Shown: one piece after another, positions 3,047-48,002 of the stretch
Layout: every line of letters begins with the position of its first letter
Position numbering within the stretch: the first letter of the stretch is position 1
Source of the DNA: an uncultured Myxococcales bacterium
GTDB lineage: Bacteria > Desulfobacterota > Binatia > UBA1149 > CAITLU01
Reading direction: 5' to 3'
Assembly: GCA_964476185.1 (NCBI GenBank)
Contig: CAYYZO010000006.1
Coordinates: forward strand, 16,529 to 80,528
DNA: 64,000 nt
Made by a program: the position numbers and the translations under genes
Notes under the pieces: generated by a model
The model's input: the letters and a program-made list of their open reading frames with translations, nothing else
The model's database searches: none
Told to the model about the DNA's origin: nothing

Positions 3047-3066
3047 ACGAGCGACGGAGACGGCCG

Positions 3067-17710: not shown

Positions 17711-17718
17711 AACAGGTT
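17711..17718. promoter_or_regulatory. AACAGGTT core (KstR-like AACnnGTT half-palindrome) in divergent P450/tetR intergenic region
   Basis: ...TTGGGTAACAGGTTTGCC... at 17705-17722. The same AACAGGTT core recurs upstream of the second TetR gene at 41302-41311. It is short and unsupported by other evidence. Confidence 0.2.
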
Positions 17719-17835
17719 TGCCGAGGTGCGGCAAGACCTGAATTGTCCCCGGTGCGGGCGGCTCGCCGCTTCGAGAGCGGCCGAATCCCCGGTTGATCTC
17801 GCGGCTCCGCCCCGGCGGGCCGCACAGGAGACGCC

Positions 17836-26882: not shown

Positions 26883-29291
26883 CTACGGGCAGCCGCCCAC
26901 GCCTGGCGTGTACGCCACCATCGGGTCCCCGGCGCATCGCAGGCTCAGCGTGGTCTGCTGGACCTGGCGGACCAGCCCCGGGAGGCCGGCCACCGCGTTG
27001 ATGCCCAGGTTCGAGGTAGGCGGAACGCAATGGCTGCCGGCGAGTAGCGGCGCGGTGGCGCTGGACGCTCCCGTAGCGACGACAGGGTCGAGGAAGCACG
27101 CGCGTCGCTCGACGATGGTGCAGTCGCCGGCATCGATGCCGACCGTGGCGGGGGTGCAGTCGTCGTTCGTCGAGCACGCGAGAATCCCGCGGCCGTCAGC
27201 TCTTGTGACGCCGTCGCAGAAACGGTCGTCGGGCCCGGTCGTGCACTGGCCCTCGCCGCCGCCGAGATCCGTACAGAGAAGGTCCTCGCAGTCGTTGGGA
27301 AGCGGATCGACGCCGAAGCCTCTGCTGCTGCAGGTGGCGGGCTCGCAGGAACCGAGATTCGCGTCCTGGCAGTCCGCGTCCACGCTGCACGGCAGGGACA
27401 GCAAGCCCGTGCAGCGATGCAAGGCCGGGTGGCAGGTGCCGACGTCGACGGTAGCGCAGTCGGCGTTCTCGTCGCATTGATGGAGGGGGGCCGCGGCGCA
27501 GCCGCCTCGCAGCGCGGCGCAGTCGGTGTCACCGGCGCAAGCGACCGAGGGGTCGGAACTGCAGAGCAGGCACGGACAGTCCAGGCCGGCTCCGGTTCCG
27601 GGACAGGACAGGCCGGAGGCGTGCGAACTCGCCCCCGTCTTCTGCGACAGGTTCAGCTTCAGCCCGGATCCGCTGACGTTGAGGCCGGCGGACGGCAGGC
27701 AGTCGAGGCTGTACCCGCTTCCGCCTCCACCTCCGGCAAAGGCGGGCAGCGAGGCATTCGCGCCCAGGACATCGCAGGACAGGCCGTTGGACTGGCCGCC
27801 CACGCATGTCCCGCCGCGAAGTCCGTCGCCCGCGACCGGGTCGAGGTCGCAGGAGCCGCCGGGGCAGTCGAAGTCGCGCTGGCACGTGGCGGCGGGATTG
27901 TTCGAGCAGGTTCCGCCGCAGGTCGGACAGGGCGCTACCGTGGTCGAGCCGAGGTAGATCCTCGAACTCAGGCTTGCCTCGAGCACGACGTCTCCGGTGT
28001 CCACGTCGATCGAACCGTCGGGGTGCTCCGTGATCCGGTCGACGACGCAAAGGGGAGTGCCTCCGAAGCTGAGCGGCGCCGGCGGGCCGGCGTAACACTG
28101 GCAGGCGCCGCTGCCCGGGCAGTCGTCCGAGTGCGGAGCGAACGGGTCGTCGCAGACGATCCGCGGATCGTCGATGCAGCGGCAGTTGCCGGGGGCCGGG
28201 TCGAGCGCGACGATGTCGCACGAACCGCACGTCGGCCCGGCCGGTCCTTCGCAATACAGCCTCAACCCGAGGCGAACGCCGTCGTTGGAGTCGGATTCGT
28301 GGCCGAGTCCGGTCCAGCCGAGGTCCACGTCGGTGACAGAGGTGCAGTGGCCCAGCGTCTGGTCGCAGGTGCGTGGGGCGGCGCAGTCGCCGTTGTCCGA
28401 GCACGGCACCTTCGTGTCGCGGGAGAGCAGGACCAACTCTGCGCTCCCGGGGCAAGCCGGATCGCCGACCGGGATCGTGGTCGGCGTCGGCAGCTGGAGC
28501 AGCTCTTCGACGAAGACCTTGCCGCCGTCGTCCAGTGTCGACACTACGCAACTCGCCAGCAGGGAAGGATCGGTCGCTCCGCCGCAAGAGTCGAGGTCAC
28601 CGTCGGGCAGGACCTCCGCGCACGGACCGTTCAGGATGCTCTCTTCGACCTTGGCGCTCGCCTCGCTGAGAAGAGCCGGATACTCGGCGTCCGTGCATTC
28701 CGTCACGGTCACGGCGCCGGCCTTCTCGGCGTCGGACTGGCACTTCGAGACGCTCCTGAGGATCGCGTCGAAGAAGCGCGAGCTGCTCTTGGTGACCGAG
28801 CGGTGGCACTTTCTCGAAGGGGTCGCGAGTGGCACGGCGGGATCTCCGTACGCGGCGTCCGCCAGTTCCTCGATGCGCGACCGGTTCAGGCATACGAGGC
28901 ATTCTGCCACCTCGTCGAATCCGGTCAGCGCGGGGACGGTTACGTCGCATGGCGCCGGACACTGCTGGAACAGGACCGTCGATGGGAGGATCCCCTCGCA
29001 TCGGGCCGTGACGTTCTGCACGAACTTCGCTTCGGCCTGCGGGAGCTTGTCCTTCAAGTCGGCGGTCGCGGGGGAGTTGCAGTCGAGCGCGCCGGCGCCG
29101 GTGTTGCGGTAGTGGTGGCAGTCGGCGATGGCGCGCATCGTCGCCTTGGCGAGTTTCGCTCCAGCCTTGGCCACGGTCGACCGGCAACGAAGCTGCTCGG
29201 GACTGAACTGGCCGAAGGCGGTTCCGGGGGATCCGGGCAGGATCGTCGTGAGGACGATCATGGTAGTGAACAACAAGGCGGAACGACGCAT
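26883..29291 (-). CDS. secreted cysteine-rich protein, paralog of 12199-13815 with different N-terminal module; function unknown
   Basis: Signal peptide MRRSALLFTTMIVLTTILPGSPGTAFG, with an AGGAG RBS before ATG 29291. About 70 Cys. The C-terminal 350 aa align with the 12199-13815 protein (DLGWTGLGHESDSNDG... / DVGWTGLSHDYDTDDP...; ...CTIVERRACFLDPVVATG... / ...CTLVERRDCFLDPIVTQG...) and both end in YTPGVGGCP. Confidence 0.75.
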   Translation of the reverse strand: MRRSALLFTTMIVLTTILPGSPGTAFGQFSPEQLRCRSTVAKAGAKLAKATMRAIADCHHYRNTGAGALDCNSPATADLKDKLPQAEAKFVQNVTARCEGILPSTVLFQQCPAPCDVTVPALTGFDEVAECLVCLNRSRIEELADAAYGDPAVPLATPSRKCHRSVTKSSSRFFDAILRSVSKCQSDAEKAGAVTVTECTDAEYPALLSEASAKVEESILNGPCAEVLPDGDLDSCGGATDPSLLASCVVSTLDDGGKVFVEELLQLPTPTTIPVGDPACPGSAELVLLSRDTKVPCSDNGDCAAPRTCDQTLGHCTSVTDVDLGWTGLGHESDSNDGVRLGLRLYCEGPAGPTCGSCDIVALDPAPGNCRCIDDPRIVCDDPFAPHSDDCPGSGACQCYAGPPAPLSFGGTPLCVVDRITEHPDGSIDVDTGDVVLEASLSSRIYLGSTTVAPCPTCGGTCSNNPAATCQRDFDCPGGSCDLDPVAGDGLRGGTCVGGQSNGLSCDVLGANASLPAFAGGGGGSGYSLDCLPSAGLNVSGSGLKLNLSQKTGASSHASGLSCPGTGAGLDCPCLLCSSDPSVACAGDTDCAALRGGCAAAPLHQCDENADCATVDVGTCHPALHRCTGLLSLPCSVDADCQDANLGSCEPATCSSRGFGVDPLPNDCEDLLCTDLGGGEGQCTTGPDDRFCDGVTRADGRGILACSTNDDCTPATVGIDAGDCTIVERRACFLDPVVATGASSATAPLLAGSHCVPPTSNLGINAVAGLPGLVRQVQQTTLSLRCAGDPMVAYTPGVGGCP

Positions 29292-32458: not shown

Positions 32459-33286
32459 TCAGCCGGGCTCGGCCGCGCTCTCGGCGCTGCGCGCGAACAC
32501 CTCGCGCGCGGCGTCGAGAGCGGCCGCGTCGACGGTGAAGCGCAGCGAGCCGCAGGTCTCGGAGCAGCGGGCGGCGTAGCGAACGTCGTGGAAGTACGAC
32601 GTCACTTCGGCGGACAGCGGCATGACTTGCAGGCCGGGGTCCCACCGAACCGGGGCGCCGCTCGCGTCCCGCACCGCGCCGCCGGCCAGCGCCAGCGTCG
32701 CGTCGGCCAGCGACAGCGCGCCGAGGTCGCGCAGCAGAGCCTCGAAGCGACCCTGCTCGACGGGATCGAGGAACAGGAACAGGCGCGAGCGCCAGAAGAT
32801 CGCCGCGTCGTGGAAGAACTTCGGAAGCGCCGCGACGCCGTTCTTGCCGAGCTGCCGCGCGATGCGAACCGCCACGCGGAACGCGAGCCGTAGCACGCCG
32901 AGTCCGGGGTGTTCCTGGAGCGGGAGCCGCTCGTGGCCGGCGTCGAAGCTCCTCGCCGGGTCCTGCTCCCGCAGCCAGTAGACGACGACGAGGTCGAGGT
33001 CGGGGAGCACGGGGATGTCCTCGCGCGCCGCTGCCGGGCGCGGCTGCGCGCCGGCCGGAACACGAACCTCGCTCAGGCAGGCGTCGAGAAGCAGCAGGCG
33101 CGCGTCGCCCTTGCACGCGAACAGGCGCGCGTGGGTCAAGGGGCCTTCCGACGCGTCCAGTTCGAATGCCGGATCGCGATAGCCCCGCCGCGCGATGGCG
33201 GCGAGCACACCGGCTTCGTCGAACAGCCGAAGAAGATCGTTCGCGCCGAGGCTTCCGAGCAGCAGCGGCTCGCCGGTCGCCGTCAC
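32459..33286 (-). CDS. hypothetical protein (conserved-looking, no recognisable domain)
   Basis: GTG 33286 overlaps the HDAC-like gene stop as GTGA, suggesting translational coupling. The upstream part of the 490-aa track ORF is Arg-rich frame noise. Confidence 0.45.
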   Translation of the reverse strand: MTATGEPLLLGSLGANDLLRLFDEAGVLAAIARRGYRDPAFELDASEGPLTHARLFACKGDARLLLLDACLSEVRVPAGAQPRPAAAREDIPVLPDLDLVVVYWLREQDPARSFDAGHERLPLQEHPGLGVLRLAFRVAVRIARQLGKNGVAALPKFFHDAAIFWRSRLFLFLDPVEQGRFEALLRDLGALSLADATLALAGGAVRDASGAPVRWDPGLQVMPLSAEVTSYFHDVRYAARCSETCGSLRFTVDAAALDAAREVFARSAESAAEPG

Positions 33287-34197
33287 GACGGCGCACCGAG
33301 CAGCCAGGAGAAATAGTTGCGGTAGATCCGCCAGCTCGACGGCCCGTAGCCGCCGGCCATCACGACCGCCGTCGGGATGCCGCGGCTTCGAAGCTGCCGC
33401 GTCACGAAGCGGTCGCGGGCGAGCATCCCTTCCTCGCTGACGAGCGCGTCGCCGAGGGTGTCCTCGACGAAGGGGTCGCTTCCGGCGAGATAGAACGCGA
33501 GGTCCGGCTGGAAGCGCCCGAGCACGCGGGGCAGCGTCGACTCGAGGGCGTCGAGGTACTCCCGGTCGCCGGCGCGGGGCGGGAGAAGGACGTCCTCGTT
33601 GTTCGTCTTCTCGACGAAGCACCAGGGCACGTTGTGCAGCGAATACGTGAAGACGCTCTCGTCGTTCGCGAAGATCAGCGCGTTGCCGTTGCCGTGGTGG
33701 TAGTCGAGATCGACGATCAATGCGCGCTCGAGCCGCTGCTCCTGCTTCAGGACGCGGATCGCGATCGCGACGTCGGCGATCGCGCAGAAGCCCTCGGCCT
33801 TGTCCGGCTGCGCATGGTGGAACCCGCCGCCGAAGTTGATCGACGTCCCGCCGGTCTCGAGCGCCGATCGTGCGGCCGCCAGAGTCCCGCCGGACGCGAA
33901 CAGGAAGGGCTGGAGCAACCGGTCGTCCCACGGGTGCTGCGGGTCGAGAAGGAGGTAGCCCGCGAGCGTCCCGGGATCCTGGATCGCGGCGACGTACCCG
34001 GGCGTGTGCACCAGCTCGAGCTGCTCGTTCGTCAGGGCGTCGGCGGCGAGGAAGTCCTCGCCGACCGCGGCGCCCGCGCTGACGAGCGCATCGCGGACGC
34101 GGCGCGGGCGCAGCACGTCGAACGTGTGCCGCAGCCCTGCCTCGAGGACGTCGTAGATGTACTCGTCGCGGTAGAAGAGGGTGGGCTTCGCGTTCAT
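33283..34197 (-). CDS. histone deacetylase-family (arginase/deacetylase fold) protein, AcuC/HDAC class
   Basis: MNAKPTLFYRDEYIYD...HTPGYVAA...SINFGGGFHHAQPDKAEGFCAIADVAIAI...IVDLDYHHGNGN...YLAGSDPFVEDTLG contains the Zn/active-site blocks. Confidence 0.8.
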   Translation of the reverse strand: MNAKPTLFYRDEYIYDVLEAGLRHTFDVLRPRRVRDALVSAGAAVGEDFLAADALTNEQLELVHTPGYVAAIQDPGTLAGYLLLDPQHPWDDRLLQPFLFASGGTLAAARSALETGGTSINFGGGFHHAQPDKAEGFCAIADVAIAIRVLKQEQRLERALIVDLDYHHGNGNALIFANDESVFTYSLHNVPWCFVEKTNNEDVLLPPRAGDREYLDALESTLPRVLGRFQPDLAFYLAGSDPFVEDTLGDALVSEEGMLARDRFVTRQLRSRGIPTAVVMAGGYGPSSWRIYRNYFSWLLGAPS

Positions 34198-34291
34198 CGC
34201 CGTCCCCCGGGTCTCCCGGTGGCGGCGATCGGACCGCGGCGGGGCGGGGGATCGCTCGCGGGTGAGGCGAGCGCGGTGGTCGAAGCGGGGA

Positions 34292-35722
34292 TCAAGAGGT
34301 CTCGTAGCCGAGGACCCGGATGTAGTCGGCACGGATCGCCTCGATCCGGTCGTCGAGGTCGTCGTGGCTCCAGTCGGTCGTCGGGACGGGCGGCAGCACC
34401 GTCACCTCGACCGTCGCCGGACGGATCACGATCGCATGCTTCGGGAGCGCATCGATCGAGTTGTGGATCACGATCGGGACGATGGGCACGCCGCCCGCGA
34501 CGGCCATGTGGAACGCGCCTTTCTTGAAGCGGCCGAGGCGCGGCCCGATGCTGCGCGTTCCTTCCGGAGCGATGGCGATCGACTGGCCCTGGCGCAGCGC
34601 CTCGACGGCCGGTTCCAGCGCCTTCACCGCCTCGGCGTGGTTGAAGCGGTCGATGAAGATCGTGCCGGCCAGCTCGAACAACTGGCCCAGCAACGGGATG
34701 CCGCGGACCTCCTGCTTGCTGATCGCGACGAAGTCGCGCCGCAGCAGCTTGCAGATCAGCAGCGGGTCGATCCCGCTCTGGTGGTTGAACAGGAAGACGG
34801 CCGGCCGCTTCGACCAGAGGTGTTCCTCGCCGGAGACGGTGACGTGCACGCCGGCGAGCGCCGTCCCGAGTTCGCCCCAGGTCGTCGCCGCGAGGTTGAC
34901 CGCCTGGCGGAAGTCGCCGTCGAGGATCGCGGCCGGAAGGCCGAGCAGCAGCGACGGGATCGTGCTTCCGATCGAGAGGGACGTGCGCAGCACGTCGGTC
35001 GCGCTCGGGATGCCGCGGCTCGTGAACGTGCGCACCGGCCAGACGCGCTTGGCCGCGATCGCCTGGAGTCGCCGGCTCGGGTTGATGGGGCGAGGGCGCC
35101 CGACGATCAGGAGCAGGGGCAGGTCCTCGTCGCTGTCGGTGTAGAACCAGCTCTGCGCGAGGTCGATGCCCCGCTCGGCCGAGAAGCGCTGCGCAGCCTC
35201 CGCCTTCCCGGGGCCGTAGCAGGCCGGTTTCACGATCTGTCCGGTGAGCCGGCCGTCCTTCACCTCGAGCTCGGTGCAAAAGATGTGTTCGATGCCGAGC
35301 TCGCGCGCGACGGGCGCGATCTGGGACCGCGTCGCGGACGAGATGACGGCCAGCGTGTGCCCCTTGGCGCGATGCGCGTCCACGAGCGCGCGCGACTCGG
35401 GAAAGATGTCGGCCGCGATGCTGGTGCCGAACAGGCGCTCGCCGATCTCGTCGAACTCGGCCTCGGTCAGTCCCCGCACCATGCCGAGGCTCTCGGACAC
35501 GAAGGCCGAGAAGTTCTTGCGGCCGAGCTGGAACGCCGTGGCAGCCGCGATCATGGCGGCGACGTCTCCCGCCGCGGCCCGGCCGCTGGTGAGCCACTCG
35601 CGCGCGAAGGTCGTGCCGGAGAATCCGGCGATCAACGTGCGGTCGAGGTCGAAGAACGCGCCGACCTGCGGGCCTTCGGGACCCTCGTCGACCTCGCGTG
35701 TGAGAATTCCGCGATGAGGCAT
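34292..35722 (-). CDS. fusion protein: HAD-IB phosphatase domain + lysophospholipid (1-acyl-sn-glycerol-3-phosphate) acyltransferase PlsC/LPLAT domain
   Basis: HAD motif I FFDLDRTLIAG and motif III/IV ...WFYTDSDEDLPLL form the N-terminal domain. The LPLAT domain shows HX4D FLFNHQSGIDPLLI and IAPEGTRS. ATG 35722 (MPHRGILT) is chosen; an alternative ATG lies at 35746. Confidence 0.8.
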   Translation of the reverse strand: MPHRGILTREVDEGPEGPQVGAFFDLDRTLIAGFSGTTFAREWLTSGRAAAGDVAAMIAAATAFQLGRKNFSAFVSESLGMVRGLTEAEFDEIGERLFGTSIAADIFPESRALVDAHRAKGHTLAVISSATRSQIAPVARELGIEHIFCTELEVKDGRLTGQIVKPACYGPGKAEAAQRFSAERGIDLAQSWFYTDSDEDLPLLLIVGRPRPINPSRRLQAIAAKRVWPVRTFTSRGIPSATDVLRTSLSIGSTIPSLLLGLPAAILDGDFRQAVNLAATTWGELGTALAGVHVTVSGEEHLWSKRPAVFLFNHQSGIDPLLICKLLRRDFVAISKQEVRGIPLLGQLFELAGTIFIDRFNHAEAVKALEPAVEALRQGQSIAIAPEGTRSIGPRLGRFKKGAFHMAVAGGVPIVPIVIHNSIDALPKHAIVIRPATVEVTVLPPVPTTDWSHDDLDDRIEAIRADYIRVLGYETS

Positions 35723-35801
35723 TTCGTTTCCGGGGCCGCGGACCATAGCACAGGGTCGCCCGCGTTGCGTTGTCCCCATCGGCTGCTTTACAAGGCCCTT
35801 C

Positions 35802-38291
35802 GTGACAGCGCGACTCGCAGGATCCGGCCCGGCCGGCGAGGCCGGGGCACCGCCGGCCGGCGTCGCGCCGGAGCCGTCCGTCGAGGCGGCGTGGCCCGCC
35901 GGCGCCGGCCACGTGATCTTCCTGCTGGATGCGTCGAGCGCGCTCGAACGCCGAATGCTCGAGGATTGGATCCGCGGGTCGCGTCCTGCGTCCGTGCCCG
36001 AGAACGCGGTGGAGTCCGTCGCGATCCCGCCATCGAGGCGCCGTCGCCGGAAGTCCCCCGGCCTCGCGCGCCTCGAGACGGCGATCGCGGCCGGCGGCAA
36101 TCCCCTCATGGCGCCGCTTCGCGTCGCCTGGCTGCCCGCCAACGCCGACGGCTCGCCGCGACTCAGTCCCCTCGACATCGTGACGATGACCGACCCGCGC
36201 GACCCGGGGCCGCTGCGGCAGCGCTGGATCGCGAGCCGTCACCCGGAGCGGGTGCGGGTCGTCGCGGGCGAGCCGGCGCCGCTCGCCGAGCTTCGCCGCA
36301 CCTGGCGCGAGAGCGGGGGCCAGTTCGAGAGCGAGACCACCGGCCTGGCGGAGTTCATCGCGCGACGCGCGACGCTCGCGCTCGAGCGCTCGGAGCGTCG
36401 CCTTCGCGGAGCGCGCTACAAGGTGCCGCGGCTGGTCACCGAGGACATCCTGGCGCGGCCCGCGTTTCGCGGAGGCATCGCGCGGCTCGCGCGTGAGGTG
36501 GGCAAGGGCGAGGCGGCGGTCGCGGCCGAGGCCGCGGGCTACCTCGACGAGATCGCCGCGACGCACGACCCGTTCGTGATCGACGTCGTGGCCTGGTTGA
36601 TCGGCGTCCTGTACCGCCGCGGCTATGGGGAGAACATCCACTACGACCGCGGGCGGCTCGAGCGGATCTATGCAACGGCGCAGCGCCACCCTGTCGTGTT
36701 CCTGCCGACGCACAAGTCGAACCTCGATCACCTCGTGCTGACCTACGTCCTGCACGAGAACGGCCACCCGCCGAACCACACGGCCGGCGGCATCAACATG
36801 AACTTCTTCCCCGTCGGTCCGCTGATGCGGCGCGCCGGGGTGTTCTTCATCCGCCGCACGTTCAAGGACAACGAAACCTACAAGTTCGTGCTGCATCACT
36901 ACGTGGACTACCTGGTCGAGAAGAGGTTCACGCTCGAGTGGTATCTCGAAGGCGGGCGCTCGCGCTCCGGCAAGCTGCTCCCGCCGCGCTTCGGCATGCT
37001 CGCGTACGTCGTCGACGCGTGGCAGCGGGGCAAGAGCGAGGACGTCGTGCTCCTGCCGGTCTCCATCGCCTACGACCAGATCCAGGACGTCGGCGAGTAC
37101 GTCGCCGAGGAGCGCGGGGGCGGCAAGGAGAAGGAGAACTTCGGCTGGTTCCTGAAGGTCGTGCGGCGGCTCCGCCGGCGCTACGGCGACATCCACGTCC
37201 GCTTCGGCGAGCCGCTCTCCCTGCGGGAGTTCTACGGCGAGGCCGCGGCCGGCCCGGGAGCGCCGGGAGTCCCGGACGAGAACCATCTGGCGCTGCAGAA
37301 GCTCGCGTTCGAGCTCAGCGTCCGCATCAATCGCGCGACGCCGATCACGCCGACCTCGCTCGTGACGCTCGCGCTGCTCGGGGTCGGCGACCGCGCGCTG
37401 TCGGTCGAGGAGACCGCCGCGGCGCTGACCAACCTCGTCGCCTACGTCGAGGCCCGCCGGCTCCCGGTCACCGAGGACTTCGACCTGCGCCGGCCGGAGG
37501 AGGTGCAGCGCGTGCTGGATCACCTCGTCGAGAACGGCGTCGTCTCGGCGTTCACGGAGGGCCCCGAGGCCGTCTACGCGATCCGGCCGGAGCAGTTCCT
37601 GACGGCCGCGTACTATCGCAACACGGTGATCCACTTCTTCGTGACGGGATCGATCGCGGAGGTCGCTCTGGTCGCGGCCATGGAGGCGACGACGGGGGAC
37701 CGCCTCGAGATCTTCTGGACGAAGGCTCTCGCGCTGCGCGACCTCATGAAGTTCGAGTTCTTCTTCGCCGACCGTGCGGACTTCCACGAGGAGATGCGCG
37801 CGGAGATGTCGCTGCACGATCCCGGCTGGGAGGAGAAGCTGCGGACCGGGGGGAAGGAGATCGAGGCGCTGCTGCTCGCGGTCAAGCCGTTCAATTCGCA
37901 CCGGGTCCTGCGCCCGTTCCTGGAAGCCTATCGCGTGGTGGCGGACCAGCTCGCCCTCCTTCCGCCCGACACGAGGATCGACGAAGCACGATTCGTGTCG
38001 CAGTGCCTCGCGCTCGGCCGCCAGTACCTGCTGCAGAAGCGGGTCACGCGCGCGGAGTCGATCTCCAAAGTGCTGTTCCAGAACACGCTCCGGCTGGCGG
38101 CCAACCGCAACCTGCTGGATGGCGCCCCCGGCGAGGAACTCGCGGCTCGCCGCCTCGCGTTCTCGCGGGAGATCCAGCGCGCGATCCGCCGGGTGGACGC
38201 GATCGACGTACTCGCGGCAAGCCGGCGCACCGGGCTGCTCGGCCGCGGCGACTCGGACGACGCGCCGGGCGCGAGGAGGGCAGGGCGATGA
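35802..38291 (+). CDS. plsB: glycerol-3-phosphate 1-O-acyltransferase (PlsB-type GPAT)
   Basis: HX4D block VVFLPTHKSNLDHLVL, GVFFIRRTF and WYLEGGRSRSGKLLPPRFG match the PlsB catalytic motifs. The product is 829 aa. GTG start at 35802. Confidence 0.85.
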   Translation: MTARLAGSGPAGEAGAPPAGVAPEPSVEAAWPAGAGHVIFLLDASSALERRMLEDWIRGSRPASVPENAVESVAIPPSRRRRRKSPGLARLETAIAAGGNPLMAPLRVAWLPANADGSPRLSPLDIVTMTDPRDPGPLRQRWIASRHPERVRVVAGEPAPLAELRRTWRESGGQFESETTGLAEFIARRATLALERSERRLRGARYKVPRLVTEDILARPAFRGGIARLAREVGKGEAAVAAEAAGYLDEIAATHDPFVIDVVAWLIGVLYRRGYGENIHYDRGRLERIYATAQRHPVVFLPTHKSNLDHLVLTYVLHENGHPPNHTAGGINMNFFPVGPLMRRAGVFFIRRTFKDNETYKFVLHHYVDYLVEKRFTLEWYLEGGRSRSGKLLPPRFGMLAYVVDAWQRGKSEDVVLLPVSIAYDQIQDVGEYVAEERGGGKEKENFGWFLKVVRRLRRRYGDIHVRFGEPLSLREFYGEAAAGPGAPGVPDENHLALQKLAFELSVRINRATPITPTSLVTLALLGVGDRALSVEETAAALTNLVAYVEARRLPVTEDFDLRRPEEVQRVLDHLVENGVVSAFTEGPEAVYAIRPEQFLTAAYYRNTVIHFFVTGSIAEVALVAAMEATTGDRLEIFWTKALALRDLMKFEFFFADRADFHEEMRAEMSLHDPGWEEKLRTGGKEIEALLLAVKPFNSHRVLRPFLEAYRVVADQLALLPPDTRIDEARFVSQCLALGRQYLLQKRVTRAESISKVLFQNTLRLAANRNLLDGAPGEELAARRLAFSREIQRAIRRVDAIDVLAASRRTGLLGRGDSDDAPGARRAGR

Positions 38292-39724
38292 ACGGGTTCG
38301 CCTACGAGCCGCTGTCGGCCGCCGACAACGCGTTCCTCGAGCTCGAGGACAGCGGCGCCCACATGCACATCGGCGCGACGTCGATCTTCGAGGCGTCTTC
38401 GCTCGCGCGCGAGGACGGCGGGCTCGACATCGACCGCATCCGCGCCTACGTCGAATCGCGCCTGCACCTCATTCCGCGCTACCGGCAGCGTCTCGCCTAC
38501 GTGCCGCTCGGGCGCCTGCCGGTCTGGGTCGACGACGAGCACTTCAACCTCGAGTACCACGTCCGGCACACGAGCCTGCCGAGGCCGGGGTCGATGGACC
38601 AGCTGAAGGCGCTTGCAGCCCGCGTTCAGTCGCAGCGGATCGACCGCCTGAAGCCGCTCTGGGAGTTCTGGGTGGTGGAGGGGCTCGAGGGCGGACGTCG
38701 CTTCGCGGTTCTCCAGAAGGTCCACCACTGCATGATCGACGGGATCTCCGGCGTGGATCTCCTGGCCGTGCTGCTGAGCCCGATGGCGTCGACGACATTC
38801 GAGCACGGTCCGCAGTTCATCCCGCGGCCGGCGCCGGCTGCGCCGGCGCTCGCCGTCTCGGAGGCGTGGCGCAGCGTGCGGGAACCGCTCGGCGCGCTGG
38901 TTTCGGTCGGCTCGCGCCTGCGGGACCCGGCGTCACTCGCGCGCGACGTGCTCGATGGCGTCGAAGGAATCGCCGAGGCCCTGACGTCCAGCGCTCGGCC
39001 GGCGTCGTGGACGCCGTGGAACCAGCCGATCGGTCCTCACCGTCGCTTCGAATGGTTGCGGCTCGATCTCGCCTCGATCAAGGCCGTGAAGGACCGGCTC
39101 GGCGGGACGGTGAACGACGTCGTGCTGGCGACGGTTGCCGGCGCGGTGCGACGCTTCCTGCTCCAGCGCGGCGAGGATCCCGACGAACTGCGCATTCGCG
39201 CGAACGTCCCGGTCAGCGTGCGCGCGGCCGACGAGCGTGGCAACCTCGGCAACCGCATCGCGCTGTGGATGACGGACCTGCCCGTCGACGAAGCCGATCC
39301 CGTCGCGCGCCTGGAACGGGTGCGGATCACCACGCATCGGCTGAAGGAATCGAAGCAGGCCCTCGGCGCGCAGGTCCTCGCGAGCGTGAGCGACATGACC
39401 ACGTGGCGGCTGCTCGCGACGGCGATCCGCCTGTCGATGAGCTCGCGCCCGTACAACCTCGTGGTGACGAACGTCCCGGGACCGCAGCTCGAACTCTATC
39501 TGCTCGACGCGCCGCTGCGCGAGATCTATCCGATGGTGAACCTGCTCCAGGGGCAGGGGCTCGGCGTCGCGCTGTTCAGCTACGCCGGCGTCCTGCACTG
39601 GGGCGTCCTCGCCGACTGGGACCTCGTCCCCGACCTCGACCTGTTCGTCGCCGACCTGGCGCGGTCCTTCGAGGAACTCCGCGCCGCTGCCGGCGTCGGC
39701 AGGGCTCAGGCCGCTTCGCTGTAG
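38288..39724 (+). CDS. wax ester synthase/acyl-CoA:diacylglycerol acyltransferase (WS/DGAT)
   Basis: Active-site HHCMIDGISG is present. N-terminal MNGFAYEPLSAADNAFLELEDSGAHMHIGA; C-terminal ...NLVVTNVPGPQ. The ATG overlaps the plsB stop as ATGA. Confidence 0.85.
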   Translation: MNGFAYEPLSAADNAFLELEDSGAHMHIGATSIFEASSLAREDGGLDIDRIRAYVESRLHLIPRYRQRLAYVPLGRLPVWVDDEHFNLEYHVRHTSLPRPGSMDQLKALAARVQSQRIDRLKPLWEFWVVEGLEGGRRFAVLQKVHHCMIDGISGVDLLAVLLSPMASTTFEHGPQFIPRPAPAAPALAVSEAWRSVREPLGALVSVGSRLRDPASLARDVLDGVEGIAEALTSSARPASWTPWNQPIGPHRRFEWLRLDLASIKAVKDRLGGTVNDVVLATVAGAVRRFLLQRGEDPDELRIRANVPVSVRAADERGNLGNRIALWMTDLPVDEADPVARLERVRITTHRLKESKQALGAQVLASVSDMTTWRLLATAIRLSMSSRPYNLVVTNVPGPQLELYLLDAPLREIYPMVNLLQGQGLGVALFSYAGVLHWGVLADWDLVPDLDLFVADLARSFEELRAAAGVGRAQAASL

Positions 39725-40656
39725 AACTGCCGGCACCAGTTGCGGAAGATCCCGATCGGGCCGTCCCCGTCGCAGAGCACGGGCCGGTCGAGGAACGCCT
39801 TGTTCTCCCAGATCGGGATGTCCTCGCGCATCTGCTTCTCGATGTCCATGACGAGCGCCTTGCCGACGCCGCGCGTGGTGCGCTCGTCGCCGAGGCTCTT
39901 GACCATGAACGAGAAGCGCACGTCGACGTACTCGCCGTCGATCGGCGTCACCGACGTGACCAGGCACGTCTCGACGATGCCGCGGAACAGCACCTGGCCG
40001 AAGCCGAAGCCCCAGGACTTCGACTCGATGCTGCCGTCCACTTCGCCCATCGGCGTGCCCATCTTCATCTGCGACAGGACGTGCAGCAGCGGGCCGTCGG
40101 TCGTCGCCTGGCTCTGGGGAACGGTCAGGGTGCCGTGCACGTAGCGGAAGTGGGCCTGGTCGACCGAGTTCTCGGCCATGTCCTGGTTGTGCGTGCGGAT
40201 CTTCCAGCGCCGCTTCACGTACGGCGTCCAGTCCTGGAGGCCGTGCTGTTCGACGACCGGCACTTCCCAGTCCGGCGCGCTCCCGCCGGCATGGTGCCAG
40301 AGCATCACGAGGCCGTTGCGCTCCGTCACCGGGTGCCCGGCGAGTCTGGCCGAAGGCGGGATGCGCTTGCCGTAGGGGATCTCGTCGCACTTGCCGCTGC
40401 AGTCGTAGCGCCAGCCGTGGAAGGGGCAACGGATCGCGTTGCCCTCGACCTTGCCGCCGTAGCCGAGGTGCGCGCCGAGGTGCGGGCAGTGCGCGTCGAA
40501 GACGCGAGCCGTTCCGTCCTCGCCGCGGTACAGGACGTAGTCGCGTCCGAAGTAGTGCAGCGGCTCGACCTGGCCGGCCTCGAGCTCGTCGCTGTACGCG
40601 ACCTGGAACCAGCCGTTCGGGAAGGGCGTCATCGGGTAGCGCTGGGCAGTGGTCAT
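39706..40656 (-). CDS. Rieske [2Fe-2S] non-heme iron oxygenase (KshA/Neverland/VanA-like class)
   Basis: Rieske ligands CPHLGAHL...CPFHGW at the N-terminus, with a C-terminal catalytic domain (...NSVDQAHFRYVHG...). The 3' end overlaps the WS/DGAT 3' end convergently by 19 nt. Confidence 0.75.
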   Translation of the reverse strand: MTTAQRYPMTPFPNGWFQVAYSDELEAGQVEPLHYFGRDYVLYRGEDGTARVFDAHCPHLGAHLGYGGKVEGNAIRCPFHGWRYDCSGKCDEIPYGKRIPPSARLAGHPVTERNGLVMLWHHAGGSAPDWEVPVVEQHGLQDWTPYVKRRWKIRTHNQDMAENSVDQAHFRYVHGTLTVPQSQATTDGPLLHVLSQMKMGTPMGEVDGSIESKSWGFGFGQVLFRGIVETCLVTSVTPIDGEYVDVRFSFMVKSLGDERTTRGVGKALVMDIEKQMREDIPIWENKAFLDRPVLCDGDGPIGIFRNWCRQFYSEAA

Positions 40657-41291
40657 CGTCGGTCGTCTCCGTTCGTGGCGGCGTGTCCGCTGTTGGAGGT
40701 GGCGCGCGTGAGCAGCGCGGTCGCGGTGCTCATGCGCTCGATCACTTCGTTCTGTCCCATCAAGCCGCCTGCCCAGCCGATCAGGCAGGAGAACCAGATG
40801 TGCTGCAGCAGGGCGGCGACCGCGATCTCGTCCTCGCGCACCGGCGTGCCGGGGGCGTCGCCGTTCCCCGATGCCGGCGCGGCGACCGGCCCACCGTGCA
40901 TCGCGGCGAGGATCATCGCGCTCATTCGCGTGTGGAACGCGGCCACCTTCTCGGCCAGTTCGTGGTCACCGGACGCGGCGGCGCGAAGGATCGCGCGGGC
41001 GAGGCGCGGGCGGCGCATCAGGCCCTTGGTCGCGGTGCGAAAGAACGCGTCGACCCGGTCCAGGGGCGTGGCGCCGGCCATCGGGCGCGCGTGGATGCGG
41101 GCCTCGAGCGCCTCGACCTCCGAATTCAGCGCGGCGATCAGCATGTCCTCCTTGCTGCGGAAGTAGCGGTAGAGGGTGCCCAGCGCGACGTCGGCCTCGG
41201 CGGCCACGTCGCGCAGGCGAACGGCCTCGAAACCGCCCTTCTCGGCAAGATCGATGGCGGTGTCGACAATGCGGCGCGCGCGCGGGTTCAC
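40653..41291 (-). CDS. TetR-family transcriptional regulator
   Basis: ARRIVDTAIDLAEKGGFEAVRLRDVAAEADVALGTLYRYFRSKEDMLIAA is the TetR HTH. GTG 41291 (VNPRARRIV). The stop overlaps the Rieske ATG as ATGA. Confidence 0.75.
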   Translation of the reverse strand: MNPRARRIVDTAIDLAEKGGFEAVRLRDVAAEADVALGTLYRYFRSKEDMLIAALNSEVEALEARIHARPMAGATPLDRVDAFFRTATKGLMRRPRLARAILRAAASGDHELAEKVAAFHTRMSAMILAAMHGGPVAAPASGNGDAPGTPVREDEIAVAALLQHIWFSCLIGWAGGLMGQNEVIERMSTATALLTRATSNSGHAATNGDDRR

Positions 41292-41301
41292 GGGCAAATT
41301 A

Positions 41302-45459: not shown

Positions 45460-46443
45460 TCAGAGCTCGCGGTCGACGAGCTGTTCGATCAGGGAGCGGA
45501 TCGCGCCCCGGAACTCGGATTCCGCCAGCGTGTCGACGACGGCCGCTGCGCGCGCGGCGTGCTCCACGGCGAGGTCCCGGACCCTGTCCAGGATGCCCTC
45601 CGCGCGGATCTCGGCGATTGCCCCGTCGATCACGGAGCGATCGCACCCCTCCTCGAGAAACGCCCGCCGAACCGACGGCAGGCCGAGCCCCCAGATCACC
45701 GGCAGCGAGGGATTGCCGTCGACGAGGTCGGTGCCGACCCTCTTGCCGATCTTGTTCGGGTCGCCTTCGACGTCCAGCACGTCGTCGATCATCTGGAACG
45801 CCATGCCGACGTCGCGACCGCAGCGTGCCATCTCCTCGACGCGATGCCCGGGAAAGCCGGCAAGGTGCCCGGCGATGCGCGTGCCGACCTCGAACAGGGA
45901 CGCGGTCTTGCGGGCGATGATCTCGAAGTAGTCGGCTTCCGTCACCGTTTCGTTACGGCGGAAGCGGCCCTGCATGATCTCGCCCTGGCAGAGCTGCACG
46001 CAGGCTTCGGACGCCCAGTTCACCACCTTCTCCTCGAAACGGCCGCAGACCTGGAAAGCGCGCGAGAACAGGAAGTCGCCCGTCACGAGCGTGTCCGCCA
46101 GGCCGAACCGCACCGGCGCGGCGTCCTTGCCGCGCCGCACGTCGTTCGAGTCGATGATGTCGTCGTGCAGCAGCGTCGCCGTGTGGATCAGCTCGAGGGA
46201 AACCGACAGGTCCACCATGTCGGTCGCATCCATGCCTCCACAGGCCCGGAAGAGGAGCAGGGCGACGGCCGGGCGCACCCGCTTGCCGCCTGCGTTGATC
46301 AGGTAGTCGGCGATCTCGGTGAGCCGCGGCTCGGTGGCCGAGATCATCTCCGCGACCCGGCGCTCGACGCCAGCGAGGTCGGCGTCGATCAGCCGAAGAG
46401 GAGCGCTCGAAGCGGCGTTCGGGACGGCGGACGGAGACGACAC
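45460..46443 (-). CDS. polyprenyl diphosphate synthase (trans-isoprenyl diphosphate synthase, IspB/GGPPS-like)
   Basis: FARM LLHDDIIDSNDVRRG, SARM FQMIDDVLD and GGKRVRP. GTG 46443 gives 328 aa. The in-frame ATG 46539 would add a low-complexity 32-aa extension. Confidence 0.8.
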   Translation of the reverse strand: MSSPSAVPNAASSAPLRLIDADLAGVERRVAEMISATEPRLTEIADYLINAGGKRVRPAVALLLFRACGGMDATDMVDLSVSLELIHTATLLHDDIIDSNDVRRGKDAAPVRFGLADTLVTGDFLFSRAFQVCGRFEEKVVNWASEACVQLCQGEIMQGRFRRNETVTEADYFEIIARKTASLFEVGTRIAGHLAGFPGHRVEEMARCGRDVGMAFQMIDDVLDVEGDPNKIGKRVGTDLVDGNPSLPVIWGLGLPSVRRAFLEEGCDRSVIDGAIAEIRAEGILDRVRDLAVEHAARAAAVVDTLAESEFRGAIRSLIEQLVDREL

Positions 46444-46637
46444 GGTGCCGGGGCTTGGACCACAACCGGGATGGAAAGCGAAACGCCGGCCGGAGCTCGA
46501 AAAGCGCCCGCCCAAGGGGGCCGCTGCGGTGCTCTCCAAGCTTTACTACGCCGCAGCCCCGTGCCACGATTCGCGAACTTTGCTTGCGGGCGTGCCACTG
46601 GGGCGTCCGTCGTCAGGAGTAGCGTGCAGTGGCCACG

Positions 46638-46964
46638 ATGATCACAGAAGAGTGCATCAACTGCGGAGCCTGCGAGCCCGAGTGCCCGAACACCGCCATC
46701 TACGAGGGCGGCGTGCAGTGGGAGGCTCCCGACGGCTCGATGCATGACGCGATCACGGAGGACATCTACTACATCGTCCCCCAGAAGTGCACGGAGTGCG
46801 TCGGGTTCTTCGACCAGGAGCAGTGCGCGGCAGTCTGCCCCGTGGACTGCTGCGTGCCGAATCCCGACATCGCCGAGACGGAGGACGTGTTGCTCGCCCG
46901 CGCGAAGGAACTCCACCCGGACACGCAGATCCCGGAGCCGCCCCCGTCGCGCTTCCGGCGCTGA
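46638..46964 (+). CDS. 2x[4Fe-4S] ferredoxin-family protein (YfhL-like)
   Basis: [12 protein letters not shown] and [22 protein letters not shown] are the cluster motifs. ATG 46638 (alternative GTG 46629). Confidence 0.8.
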
Positions 46965-46988
46965 CGCGCCGGCCGGATTCTCGGCCAG

Positions 46989-48002
46989 ATGCCGTCCCAG
47001 GGTCGCCGGGCGCTGCAGTTCGCAGTCGGCCTCGGTCTTTCCGGCCTCTTTCTCTGGCTCGCCCTGCGCGGCGAGGATTGGGGTCAGATTCGCGAGGGGC
47101 TCGCGAGCGCTGACTACCGCTACGTCGCCCTCATGGTACCGACGGGCATCTACACTCTTTACGTCCGGAGCCAGCGCTGGCGGATCCTGCTCGAGAAGAG
47201 CCACGGCCGCAGCGTCGCGATGATGCCGATCTTCTCGGCGTCCGCGATCGGCTTCATGGCCAACATGGTCCTGCCGTTCCGCGTCGGGGAGGTCGCGAGG
47301 CCGCTGATTCTCGCGCGCGACGCCGGGCTTCCGCCGGCGACCACGATGGCGACCGTCGTCGTCGAGCGCATCCTCGACCTGGTCGCGCTGGCGGCCTTCG
47401 GGCTGGCCATCGTGACGATCGCGGACGTGCCGCCCGAGATCGAACGCGTCGCCCAGGCGGCCGCGTTCGCCGCGGCCGTCGGCTTCGTCGGAGTCTACGT
47501 CGTGGTCGTCCGCAGGCAGACGCTGTTGCCGCTGCTGGACCGGCTCTGGAAGCGCATCCCGAAGCTGGGTCCGGTGATCCTTCGCGTCGAGCACGAGGTC
47601 GTCGACGGCATGTCGGCGATCGCCGATCCGATGACGATGCTGCGAACCGTGGCCCTGTCGTTCTACGTCTGGTTCATCGTCGCGATCAGCTTCGCGCTAG
47701 GCTTCGACGCGGTCGGGCTCGACGTCCCGTTCTTCGGCGGAGGGGTGACCGTCGCGACGATCGTCGCGCTGGCCGTTTCCGTGCCGTCGGCGCCGGGCTT
47801 CGTCGGGCAGTTCGAGTGGGGCTGCAAGGTCGCGCTCGAGCAGATTTACGATGTCGAGGCGGGAGCCGCCGTCTACTCGATCCTCGTGCACACGCAGCAG
47901 TTCCTGACGACCGTCGCGCTCGGCGTCGTCTTCCTCGCGCGGGAGGGGCTGAGCCTGCGGGACCTGAGCAGCATGAAGGACAAGGCCGGGGAGACCGTCT
48001 GA
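46989..48002 (+). CDS. UPF0104/flippase-like membrane protein (MprF transmembrane-domain family)
   Basis: 8 TM helices; ...YVRSQRWRILL...PIFSASAIGFMANMVLPFRVGEVARPLIL... matches the lysyl-PG synthase TM-domain family. Confidence 0.75.
   Translation: MPSQGRRALQFAVGLGLSGLFLWLALRGEDWGQIREGLASADYRYVALMVPTGIYTLYVRSQRWRILLEKSHGRSVAMMPIFSASAIGFMANMVLPFRVGEVARPLILARDAGLPPATTMATVVVERILDLVALAAFGLAIVTIADVPPEIERVAQAAAFAAAVGFVGVYVVVVRRQTLLPLLDRLWKRIPKLGPVILRVEHEVVDGMSAIADPMTMLRTVALSFYVWFIVAISFALGFDAVGLDVPFFGGGVTVATIVALAVSVPSAPGFVGQFEWGCKVALEQIYDVEAGAAVYSILVHTQQFLTTVALGVVFLAREGLSLRDLSSMKDKAGETV

Follow-up and report, generated by a model that had tools for sequence, protein, structure and literature searches.

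The 64,000-nucleotide stretch of DNA analysed here (the window) carries three adjacent lipid genes spanning 5.4 kb, which we read, on balance and with modest confidence, as an acyl-CoA-dependent Kennedy-type neutral-lipid module of an uncultured Binatia bacterium, in which a HAD-IB domain would act as the phosphatidate (PA) phosphatase. The genes encode a HAD-IB::LPLAT fusion protein (34292..35722, minus strand, 476 aa), a PlsB2-type GPAT/lysophosphatidate sn-1 acyltransferase (35802..38291, plus strand, 829 aa), and a WS/DGAT wax-ester synthase/diacylglycerol acyltransferase (38288..39724, plus strand, 478 aa). All three are present at these coordinates with domain assignments far beyond chance, and the Pfam and NCBIfam matches and motif positions bear out the gene identities, motifs and divergent layout given in the initial annotation. 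That the three genes constitute one neutral-lipid module, as was also proposed there, receives strong support from their repeated linkage in different phyla and from natural fusions. The best-named relatives are Candidatus Binatia MAGs.

The fusion protein contains HAD and Acyltransferase domains in Pfam and scores above the cut-offs of both TIGR01490 (HAD-IB; 160.6 bits versus 98.3) and TIGR00530 (AGPAT domain; 113 bits versus 102.95); its AF2 model has a pLDDT of 83.5. The phosphatase domain occupies residues 22-204 (35111..35659, minus strand; PF12710, E 7e-37, score 128.2 versus a cut-off of 27), and all four HAD catalytic motifs are intact and invariant across homologues: FFDLDRTL (motif I, aa 23-30, 35633-35656), ISSATRS (motif II, 35324-35344), YGPGKA (motif III, 35201-35218) and YTDSDEDLPLL (motif IV, 35111-35143), all on the minus strand. 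The DxDxT sequence in motif I is present and intact, as first described, and residues D25, D27, T29, K173 and D200 are 100% conserved in each of two sets of 120 sequences, one of close Binatia-like homologues and one of actinobacterial three-domain proteins, and 86-93% conserved across 69 diverse representatives; this conservation suggests that the domain is maintained as an active phosphatase. In the AF2 model the strand at residues 21-24 is followed by helices at 35-105, in line with the Rossmann-like core and the helical cap after motif I expected of a HAD-IB protein. The best solved match in Foldseek is 3fvv (TM 0.88), an uncharacterised HAD-IB protein, followed by SerB.

A helical linker, hydrophobic in part, connects the two catalytic domains (aa 241-289, 34856..35002, minus strand, including SIGSTIPSLLLGLPAAIL; AF2 helices 241-252, 254-268 and 271-289). 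Judged by its position ahead of a PlsC-like core matching 5kym, it probably forms membrane-interface helices. The LPLAT/AGPAT (PlsC-type) domain itself (aa 293-419, 34466..34846, minus strand; PF01553, E 8e-33) contains the motifs NHQSGID (HX4D, 34766-34786), FIDR (FxxR-like, 34646-34657), APEGTRS (EGTR, 34550-34570) and the proline-containing VPIVPIV (34469-34489), all on the minus strand, and its closest solved structure is Thermotoga maritima PlsC (5kym, E 3.5e-20, TM 0.77). With both the profile and the motifs of LPLAT/AGPAT enzymes in place, the predicted activity is sn-2 acylation of 1-acyl-glycerol-3-phosphate.

The PA phosphatase assignment was originally argued from lipin/Pah1, with which the fusion shares membership of the HAD superfamily and a DxDxT nucleophile motif. 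The motif is a hallmark of the HAD phosphatase superfamily as a whole, so the analogy is not specific. Unlike lipin/Pah1, the HAD domain here belongs to another branch of the superfamily, being PSP-like HAD-IB with a helical cap; the Pfam matches to the fusion at E <= 0.001 are PF12710, PF00702 and PF01553 alone, with no lipin-type domain, and the 50 listed Foldseek matches include neither a lipin nor a Pah structure.

The PlsB protein scores 864 bits with NF002886, the mycobacterial PlsB2 equivalog (cut-off 721), and contains an Acyltransferase domain (36681-37067) with an HKSNLD motif (HX4D, 36711-36728) and a GPAT_C domain (37098-38120), all on the plus strand; related GPATs have been solved as 9vuq and 8e4y. 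The WS/DGAT scores 421.7 bits with TIGR02946 (cut-off 309.95), has both the catalytic and C-terminal domains (PF03007 and PF06974) and an active-site HHCMIDG (aa 146-152, 38723-38743, plus strand), and is related to the solved structures 6chj and 7nxg (E about 1e-48).

The plsB and wsd genes overlap by an ATGA at 38288-38291 that combines the plsB stop and wsd start codons, with GGAGGG 8 nt 5' of the ATG. The coupling reported initially is thus real in this genome, but neither it nor the presence of WS/DGAT is conserved among the closest relatives. For the fusion gene, homologue N-termini favor the start at 35722 (MPHRG) over the upstream ATG at 35746. The plsB start is the GTG at 35802, the first start codon past an in-frame upstream stop, and alignments with close relatives begin at PlsB residues 5-7. 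With these starts the divergent gap is 35723..35801, 79 bp, at the positions first reported. Blocks ACCATAGCAC, CGTTGCGTTG and CTTTACAAG within it are kept in related Binatia loci, and it may serve as a promoter or operator region; a simple consensus scan of 35723-35801 found no sigma-70-like promoter. It is plausible that this single region of ~80 bp drives all three genes and that they are co-regulated.

Beyond wsd lie genes for a KshA-like Rieske oxygenase (39706-40656, minus strand) and a TetR-family regulator (40653-41297, minus strand). The pair (39706..41297) converges on wsd, the gene ends overlapping by 19 bp. Two related loci (L002 and L006) carry the same TetR/Rieske neighbors, and in two others that lack WS/DGAT (L004 and L007) TetR stays beside plsB; the pair may be regulatorily tied to the trio. 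Genes for Lnt, SecDF and CoaBC are also present in the window, a core-chromosome context.

Relatives of the fusion are encoded in at least 575 GTDB species genomes. Among 50 loci flanked on both sides by 5 kb or more, a PlsB-like gene adjoins the fusion in 39, a WS/DGAT lies within 7 kb of it in 32, and both are present in 31; in ten the fusion is alone. Nine different gene arrangements occur among the fusion loci, indicating conservation of the association itself and not of one operon. The close relatives L004, L007 and L010 have the fusion and plsB without WS/DGAT, and in L001, L008 and many Myxococcota the fusion stands alone. The distribution of the arrangement, put forward as a check on the module, therefore shows wide recurrence of the fusion and its partners, but in varied order and without WS/DGAT in some Binatia relatives; the conserved Binatia core is thus the fusion plus plsB, which is also compatible with membrane-lipid synthesis.

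The same activities are also found joined in natural single-chain proteins. HAD::LPLAT::WS/DGAT proteins are abundant: the best 120 hits of P0138 are all 949-992 aa long with every domain present, and their hosts include cultured Pseudonocardia, Geodermatophilus and Blastococcus. The reverse order, WS/DGAT::HAD::LPLAT, is rare and forms four sequence clusters. In 13 genomes a single ORF of 1008-1099 aa encodes GPAT::HAD::LPLAT, with Saprospiraceae among the carriers. The sole chemical gap between a PA-making LPLAT and a diacylglycerol (DAG)-using WS/DGAT is PA dephosphorylation.

Neither the module nor the LPAAT/PAP hypothesis is new, and the locus described here is a Binatia member of an arrangement that the initial annotation took to be uncharacterised. 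Amara et al. 2016 proposed the fusion of Rhodococcus jostii atf9-plsB-plsC and Mycobacterium tuberculosis Rv2483c as the PAP supplier, giving four Kennedy activities per locus (PMC4850399), and Rv2483c and Rv2484c are listed among the proteins common to actinobacterial lipid-inclusion proteomes (PMC10699116). The Binatia trio resembles R. jostii RHA1 atf9-plsB-plsC and Rv2484c-Rv2483c (plsC)-Rv2482c (plsB2) in the adjacency of a WS/DGAT, a PlsB2-type GPAT and an AGPAT/HAD PlsC. Full-length homology extends to the HAD-IB::LPLAT proteins of Mycobacterium paragordonae (40.9% identity, residues 10-471) and Nocardia farcinica (37% identity, residues 11-471), and for PlsB the identity is 37-38%. The Binatia trio differs from the R. 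jostii and M. tuberculosis loci in gene order, in sequence (~40% identical) and in its host, which belongs to the Binatia and is not a mycolic-acid actinobacterium. Unlike the co-directional, co-transcribed RHA1 genes (PMC4850399), the minus-strand fusion gene is divergent from plsB-wsd, and the trio does not form a single three-gene operon of the Amara 2016 type.

According to Galvan et al. 2023 (PMC10351704), AGPAT-HAD (PF12710) fusions occur in WS/DGAT clusters of marine sediment metagenomes, the groups named being Actinomycetota, Alphaproteobacteria and Gammaproteobacteria; near Bacteroidota WS/DGAT homologues the survey describes a comparable acyltransferase/hydrolase gene. These clusters share the domain architecture seen here and the clustering with WS/DGAT and GPAT, and many of our related loci come from the groups it names. 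The word Binatia does not occur in the survey, and its accessible passages make no mention of three-domain single-chain forms. The Binatota genome paper makes no mention of wax esters, storage or acyltransferases.

PAP2 phosphatases are integral membrane proteins that work independently of Mg2+. They carry out the same step in bacterial TAG synthesis as is proposed for the HAD domain, and are unrelated to it in fold and chemistry; no PAP2-family match was found among the 33 window genes scanned with Pfam. The sediment survey cites demonstrations of PA phosphatase activity for PAP2 enzymes of Streptomyces (Lpp) and Rhodococcus, reports no PAP2 genes beside the WS/DGAT clusters, and states that the function of the fusion 'remains to be elucidated' (PMC10351704). 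In R. jostii, where the atf9-plsB-plsC operon has the same AGPAT-HAD fusion, the PAP2 genes are barely expressed (PMC4850399).

In the pathway that we favor, the PlsB2-type enzyme would acylate sn-1 of glycerol-3-phosphate, the LPLAT domain of the fusion would add the second acyl chain to yield PA at the membrane surface, and the HAD-IB domain at the N-terminus of that fusion would dephosphorylate PA to DAG. The WS/DGAT would then make triacylglycerol from DAG, or wax esters from fatty alcohols. Mycobacterial PlsB2-type enzymes acylate sn-1 of both glycerol-3-phosphate and lysophosphatidate (LPA) (PMC10593935), which makes it an assumption that PlsB acts before PlsC. No enzyme assay of any member of the fusion family was found in the searchable literature. 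Several points count against this reading: the HAD sequence does not point to a lipid substrate, its nearest relatives by sequence and fold being 3fvv and soluble-substrate enzymes (SerB and histidinol-phosphatase models); some close relatives lack WS/DGAT at the locus; PAP2 enzymes of Streptomyces and Rhodococcus are proven PA phosphatases; and the fusion evidence fits LPA dephosphorylation equally.

A neutral-lipid module in which the HAD domain instead dephosphorylates LPA to monoacylglycerol, with LPLAT and/or WS/DGAT then forming DAG and TAG, is unlikely, although neither neighborhood nor fusion evidence can tell LPA from PA as the substrate. Some WS/DGAT enzymes acylate monoacylglycerol as well, which is in keeping with such a route. 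The only fusion of this kind that we found with experimental support is plant GPAT4/6/8, in which an active phosphatase domain beside the acyltransferase yields monoacylglycerol and not LPA; in GPAT5/7 the phosphatase is inactive and LPA is the product (PMC11127019). By the description of their architecture the GPAT4/6/8 enzymes resemble the Binatia protein in having a phosphatase, here a predicted one, and a glycerolipid acyltransferase in one chain, and by analogy they offer a mechanistic model for LPLAT followed by HAD giving DAG. They differ in that they acylate sn-2 of glycerol-3-phosphate and make monoacylglycerol for cutin and suberin, whereas the acyltransferase here is AGPAT-like and its expected product is DAG. 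Against LPA, the acyltransferase half matches the LPA-using family TIGR00530 and T. maritima PlsC, such that hydrolysis of LPA would use up what this half of the protein acts on; likewise, if the phosphatase of GPAT::HAD::LPLAT proteins attacked what the GPAT makes, the LPLAT after it would be left without substrate.

We regard it as quite unlikely that the fusion and PlsB serve mainly in membrane-phospholipid synthesis with WS/DGAT a common yet secondary neighbor, the HAD domain then being another lipid-phosphate phosphatase (e.g. for phosphatidylglycerophosphate, PGP) or making DAG for phosphorus-free membrane lipids. The loci with fusion and plsB alone (L004, L007 and L010), the ten of 50 full-flank loci with a solitary fusion and the core-chromosome surroundings (Lnt, SecDF, CoaBC) would all suit such a role, and HAD-family PGP phosphatases are known in Escherichia coli (PgpC) and Bacillus subtilis (PgpP) (PMC11804483). 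However, no PGP-phosphatase family is among the NCBIfam matches at E <= 0.001, and the covalent fusion to WS/DGAT, which arose in both orders with one form abundant, is hard to square with a phospholipid role. Moreover, transposon mutagenesis does not predict Rv2483c to be needed for growth of M. tuberculosis (PMC10593935), so that Rv2483c does not act as the housekeeping PlsC of that organism.

It is decidedly improbable that the substrate of the HAD domain is a soluble phosphoester (phosphoserine, histidinol phosphate or glycerol-3-phosphate) or that the domain has a regulatory role, the fusion then being unrelated to PA. The JGI name for the family, 'putative phosphoserine phosphatase/1-acylglycerol-3-phosphate O-acyltransferase', points in that direction, as do the SerB enzymes among the nearest solved relatives besides 3fvv and the 125.8 bits obtained with NF052360, but with the equivalog models the scores stay far short of the cut-offs (SerB TIGR00338, 35.1 versus 144.15 bits; histidinol-phosphatase NF052360, 125.8 versus 280, and NF052359, 104.6 versus 400). 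The domain also stays attached across phyla to a membrane-lipid acyltransferase linked to PlsB and WS/DGAT, and there are no serine or histidine synthesis genes in the neighborhood. That the domain has lost catalysis and serves only structure or membrane targeting, for which the inactive phosphatase domains retained by plant GPAT5 and GPAT7 provide a precedent (PMC11127019), is very improbable, since none of the HAD catalytic residues varies among 240 sequences drawn from two distant lineages.

Returning to the PA phosphatase reading, its wider form is that HAD-IB domains fused to LPLAT are the main cytoplasmic Mg2+-dependent PA phosphatase of bacterial storage-lipid synthesis in many phyla, the three-domain proteins of Pseudonocardia, Geodermatophilus and Blastococcus, and of Saprospiraceae, being single-chain assembly lines. 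We put this forward tentatively, as a generalization about which we are slightly more doubtful than confident. If true, such a role would account for the scant PAP2 expression in TAG-accumulating R. jostii, and the assembly lines would take LPA, or even glycerol-3-phosphate, to DAG or TAG with no PA released into the phospholipid pool.

The trio lies between 34292 and 39724 in a window that has a G+C content of ~70% along its whole length, and a codon-position model placed 58 genes in this window, three of which are those of the trio. The positions and identities proposed for them in the initial annotation are confirmed by Pfam, by the curated NCBIfam cut-offs and by catalytic motifs. The leftmost gene (34292-35722, minus strand) codes for the 476-residue HAD-IB::LPLAT fusion, with an N-terminal PF12710 HAD domain (residues 22-204, E 7e-37) followed by a PF01553 Acyltransferase domain (residues 293-419, E 8e-33), an architecture resembling that of M. 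tuberculosis Rv2483c. The fusion scores 160.6 bits with the HAD-IB model TIGR01490 (cut-off 98.3) and 113 with the AGPAT domain model TIGR00530 (cut-off 102.95), and its HAD motifs (FFDLDRTL, ISSATRS, YGPGKA and YTDSDEDLPLL) and acyltransferase motifs (NHQSGID, FIDR, APEGTRS and VPIVPIV) are all present. The PlsB-like gene (35802-38291, plus strand) codes for 829 residues with Acyltransferase and GPAT_C domains and scores 864 bits with equivalog NF002886 (cut-off 721); scores with the E. coli-type PlsB models are well under this and below those models' own cut-offs. The WS/DGAT gene wsd (38288-39724, plus strand) codes for 478 residues, scoring 421.7 with TIGR02946 against a cut-off of 309.95, and contains the HHCMIDG active site.

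The plsB TGA and the wsd ATG share the sequence ATGA, as the initial annotation had observed, with GGAGGG located 8 nt upstream of the wsd ATG. This coupling is particular to this genome, the plsB and wsd alignments in relatives being separated by 12-194 bp. The start codons on either side of the divergent gap are also well placed: the equivalent of MPHRG is used as the fusion start by most homologues, rather than the upstream ATG at 35746, GTG 35802 is the first plsB start codon past an upstream in-frame stop, and alignments of close relatives begin at PlsB residues 5-7. The gap, originally described as 80 bp, is thus 79 bp (35723-35801).

Three blocks of the intergenic region, ACCATAGCAC, CGTTGCGTTG and CTnTACAAG, are retained in Binatia relatives at only 71-83% protein identity to the window (L006 6915-7030, L002 7919-8012 and L004 7870-8030, all from a scan of related genome loci). 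A sigma-70 consensus scan of 34100-39900 gave no promoter-like site, the 79-bp gap included, and the single terminator-like site in this segment lies inside the fusion gene, a count below shuffle expectation. Because CGTTGCGTTG shows no enrichment in the rest of the window (four matches with no more than one mismatch, versus six expected) and the gap contains no meaningful repeat or palindrome, no operator can be proposed. A TTGCGT-N18-TACAAG sequence spotted by eye upstream of plsB ends ~7 nt before the GTG; that it acts as a promoter is speculative, and would imply a nearly leaderless plsB transcript.

The closest named relatives of the fusion are from Candidatus Binatia MAGs (75-84% identity in the homologue search), and the top species-level genome locus is that of a Candidatus Binatia bacterium (L006, 83%). 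An actinobacterial source, which the 70% G+C and the Rv2483c-like architecture had suggested, is rejected on these homologue names. Elsewhere the window carries ordinary core-chromosome genes, for Lnt, SecD/SecF, Tgt, QueA, QueG, NadA, CoaBC, uracil-DNA glycosylase, thiolase, enoyl-CoA hydratase and acyl-CoA synthetase, and the trio is not located on any obvious mobile element. Adjoining wsd (39706-41297) are genes for a KshA-like Rieske oxygenase and a TetR-family regulator, the ends of the KshA-like gene and wsd overlapping convergently by 19 bp, and counterparts of both are present at L002 2336-3914 and L006 1393-2909. The TetR gene is retained next to plsB in relatives without WS/DGAT, as in L004 (4797-5429), and its product is therefore a candidate for regulating the lipid genes. 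Next come genes for a 4HBT thioesterase, a holA-like product and an AAA+SPOR product, an order shared with L002 and L004. The window contains more lipid-related genes without linkage to the trio, namely a cytochrome P450 gene divergent from a TetR regulator (16271-18474) and a polyprenyl synthetase gene adjoining one with an LPG_synthase_TM domain (45460-48002). Pfam gave no match at E ≤ 1e-5 for four sizeable predicted genes: 26883-29276 (minus, 797 residues), 12199-13815 (minus, 538 residues), 18471-20474 (plus, 667 residues) and 32459-33286 (minus, 275 residues).

Fusion homologues are numerous, with 425 representatives at E < 1e-30 among the 1.84 billion cluster representatives searched. 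A scan using one genome per GTDB species, seeded by a 13-sequence alignment, found a relative in at least 575 species genomes, the best 80 of which are from Binatia, Myxococcota, 'Deltaproteobacteria' MAGs, Spirochaete-labelled MAGs, one Chloroflexota-labelled MAG, Bacteroidota (Saprospiraceae, Cryomorphaceae and Chitinophagales), Gammaproteobacteria (Woeseiaceae, Arenicella, Halieaceae and Kineobactrum) and Alphaproteobacteria (Sphingomonadaceae, Parasphingorhabdus and Marinicaulis). The window PlsB and WS/DGAT were compared by tblastn with these 80 loci, and linkage was counted on the 50 flanked on each side by 5 kb or more. A PlsB-like gene adjoins the fusion in 39 of the 50 and a WS/DGAT gene lies within 7 kb in 32; both are present in 31, and the fusion is without either partner in ten. 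The HAD::PlsC-plsB-wsd association described in the initial annotation thus recurs at many loci, with variable gene order.

Nine arrangements are seen among loci with a neighbor found (F, fusion; B, plsB; W, wsd). The most common are F>B>W> (11 loci, Sphingomonadaceae and Parasphingorhabdus among them), W<F>B> (seven, including Arenicella), B>F>W< (six Bacteroidota, mostly Saprospiraceae) and F>B> (six Gammaproteobacteria and Pseudomonadota, e.g. Kineobactrum and Halieaceae). The window layout, W<B<F>, is found at three loci from Binatia and 'Deltaproteobacteria' MAGs (L006, L009 and L032), B>W>F> at three from Myxococcota and Spirochaetaceae-labelled MAGs, B<F> at two (L007 and L010), and F>W> (L015, a 'Deltaproteobacteria' MAG) and W>B>F>, the RHA1 order, at one each. 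For a genome of several Mb holding few WS/DGAT genes, the chance of finding one within 7 kb is roughly estimated at ~1% or less, and we therefore conclude that the association of fusion and WS/DGAT is selected and has been retained across repeated rearrangement.

Some fusion representatives are double the length of the window protein, and Pfam resolves their additional domains. GPAT::HAD::LPLAT proteins (P0130, P0133, P0148, P0149 and P0158) are seen repeatedly on independent contigs, and as a single open reading frame of 1008-1099 codons in 13 genome loci (L033, L034, L038 and ten others) of Saprospiraceae and other Bacteroidota. The HAD::LPLAT::WS/DGAT order is represented by P0138, a search with which recovered all domains in 120 of the 120 best matches (P0138 and P0280-P0398; 66-100% identity, 949-992 residues). 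Such proteins are abundant in the genera Pseudonocardia, Geodermatophilus and Blastococcus, with examples in cultured Pseudonocardia xinjiangensis and several other Pseudonocardia strains, Blastococcus deserti, B. jejuensis and Geodermatophilus amargosae. The WS/DGAT::HAD::LPLAT order is rare, its four sequence clusters coming from different data sets (P0131, P0274, which belongs to the P0134 cluster, P0399 and P0400). Since WS/DGAT is joined at either end, this fusion has had at least two origins. All three domains have intact catalytic motifs, and the three-domain proteins are real rather than assembly artefacts. NCBI labels them either 'HAD-IB family hydrolase' or 'wax ester/triacylglycerol synthase family O-acyltransferase'. 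Several other architectures were seen. P0127, P0128 and P0143 have Lys/Ala/Thr-rich C-terminal tails of 110-190 residues past the acyltransferase domain, with KKxAKK-like repeats that might bind lipid droplets or nucleic acid; P0409, P0411 and P0417 join WS/DGAT to an alpha/beta-hydrolase domain (about 760 residues); and P0404 and P0427 join it to a PF12710 HAD domain with no detectable acyltransferase domain.

The HAD residues D25, D27, T29, K173 and D200 are invariant in 120 of 120 Binatia-like sequences and in 120 of 120 actinobacterial three-domain proteins, and are 86-93% conserved in 69 diverse representatives, fragments among them; position 196 is D or N. A catalytically dead HAD domain is rejected on this invariance. 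An AlphaFold2 model of the fusion (51 sequences; mean pLDDT 83.5, pTM 0.72) was compared with the PDB using Foldseek. For the N-terminal half, the first match is 3fvv, a Bordetella HAD-IB protein that is uncharacterised (TM 0.88 on target), ahead of phosphoserine phosphatases of the SerB type. The C-terminal half resembles PlsC of Thermotoga maritima (5kym, TM 0.77), and PDB sequence searches concur for both halves. In the model, residues 241-289 form three helices bridging the halves, one of them hydrophobic, which are predicted membrane-interface helices preceding the PlsC-like core. A likeness to lipin/Pah1 had been suggested on the strength of the DxDxT motif, but the 50 Foldseek matches listed contain no lipin or Pah structure, and the Pfam scan of the fusion gives PF12710, PF00702 and PF01553 and nothing else.

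The four domains are thus catalytically intact by motif, linked under selection and repeatedly fused, and the trio probably cooperates in glycerolipid and neutral-lipid synthesis. With moderate confidence we predict the full path, in which PlsB would convert glycerol-3-phosphate (G3P) to LPA, the LPLAT domain would convert LPA to PA, the HAD domain would dephosphorylate PA to DAG, and WS/DGAT would form TAG from DAG, or wax ester. A PA phosphatase role is favored for the HAD domain because phosphate removal is the sole reaction missing between a PA-maker and a DAG-user, and because a conserved phosphatase sits between or beside both enzymes in one chain. Plant GPAT4/6/8, in which an active phosphatase domain beside an acyltransferase domain yields monoacylglycerol, where GPATs whose phosphatase domain is inactive yield LPA (PMC11127019), are a precedent for the two activities in one protein, as proposed for the window fusion. 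The linkage data fit a plant-like LPA phosphatase as well, but both the AGPAT-type partner domain and the GPAT::HAD::LPLAT domain order fit it poorly, and we regard it as unlikely. Also unlikely is that the fusion and PlsB serve membrane lipid, with the HAD domain acting for example as a PGP phosphatase. PGP phosphatases of the HAD family exist (PMC11804483), the fusion and plsB are the conserved core shared by the closest relatives, three of which (L004, L007 and L010) lack WS/DGAT at the locus, and at L001, on a 7.0-Mb contig, the fusion has neither plsB nor WS/DGAT beside it. HAD-domain relatives of known function use soluble substrates, but scores far below cut-off with the phosphoserine phosphatase (SerB) and histidinol-phosphatase equivalog models reject both of these.

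The PA phosphatase reading was proposed earlier for other bacteria. For the PA to DAG step in bacteria, experimental support is confined to PAP2 enzymes (references cited in Galvan et al. 2023, PMC10351704), and Amara et al. 2016 (PMC4850399) found PAP2 transcripts to be very low in Rhodococcus jostii accumulating fat. Galvan et al. 2023 describe clusters of WS/DGAT with a PF12710-bearing AGPAT in Actinomycetota, Alphaproteobacteria and Gammaproteobacteria, an acyltransferase/hydrolase gene close to Bacteroidota WS/DGAT homologues, and the absence of a PAP2 gene nearby; they restate the PAP hypothesis and regard the function as one that 'remain[s] to be elucidated'. Angala et al. 2023 (PMC10593935) showed that mycobacterial PlsB2 acylates sn-1 of G3P and of LPA, the sn-2 enzyme in mycobacteria being PlsM, and Rv2483c and Rv2484c are common to the actinobacterial data sets in a lipid-inclusion proteome comparison (PMC10699116). 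Wax esters, storage and acyltransferases go unmentioned in the Binatota genome paper.

Two actinobacterial loci extend the comparison. A Mycobacterium paragordonae plasmid (L086; NZ_CP025547.1, 306 kb) has its own copy of the module at 121916-129233, with a 505-residue HAD-IB::LPLAT protein 41% identical to the window fusion over residues 10-471, a short PlsB-like gene after it, and a WS/DGAT gene 2.5 kb upstream on the other strand. In Nocardia farcinica NCTC11134 'plasmid 2' (L087, a 2.66-Mb record with almost no annotation) plsB is directly followed by a fusion 37% identical to that of the window. A 454-codon open reading frame between the acyl-CoA synthetase gene and plsB (1811-3175) occupies the position of R. 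jostii atf9 and has no Pfam match at E 1e-5; its frame or strand may be wrong, or it may encode a very divergent WS/DGAT.

The initial interpretation is partly supported: its reading of the trio as a lipid module agrees with the linkage and the natural fusions, but its lipin argument fails and the concept is not novel. The module and the LPAAT/PAP idea were published about ten years ago, so that 'uncharacterised' holds biochemically, with no enzymatic test of any fusion-family member found in the searchable literature, but the module had not gone unnoticed (Amara et al. 2016; Galvan et al. 2023). The locus is a further case of a known, already hypothesised module, here divergently laid out and from an uncultured lineage of phylum rank; it and its relatives contribute comparative evidence and better test objects rather than a new concept, and the three-domain single-chain proteins of cultured actinomycetes are convenient for assay and possibly useful to specialists. 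In bacterial triacylglycerol synthesis, the enzyme for PA to DAG is the least settled, and a fused LPAAT/PAP, if correct, would mark the point at which storage lipid branches from membrane lipid. It would also provide a compact three-gene cassette for engineering oil production, in some actinomycetes a single three-domain protein, and would extend predicted storage-lipid capacity to uncultured Binatia.
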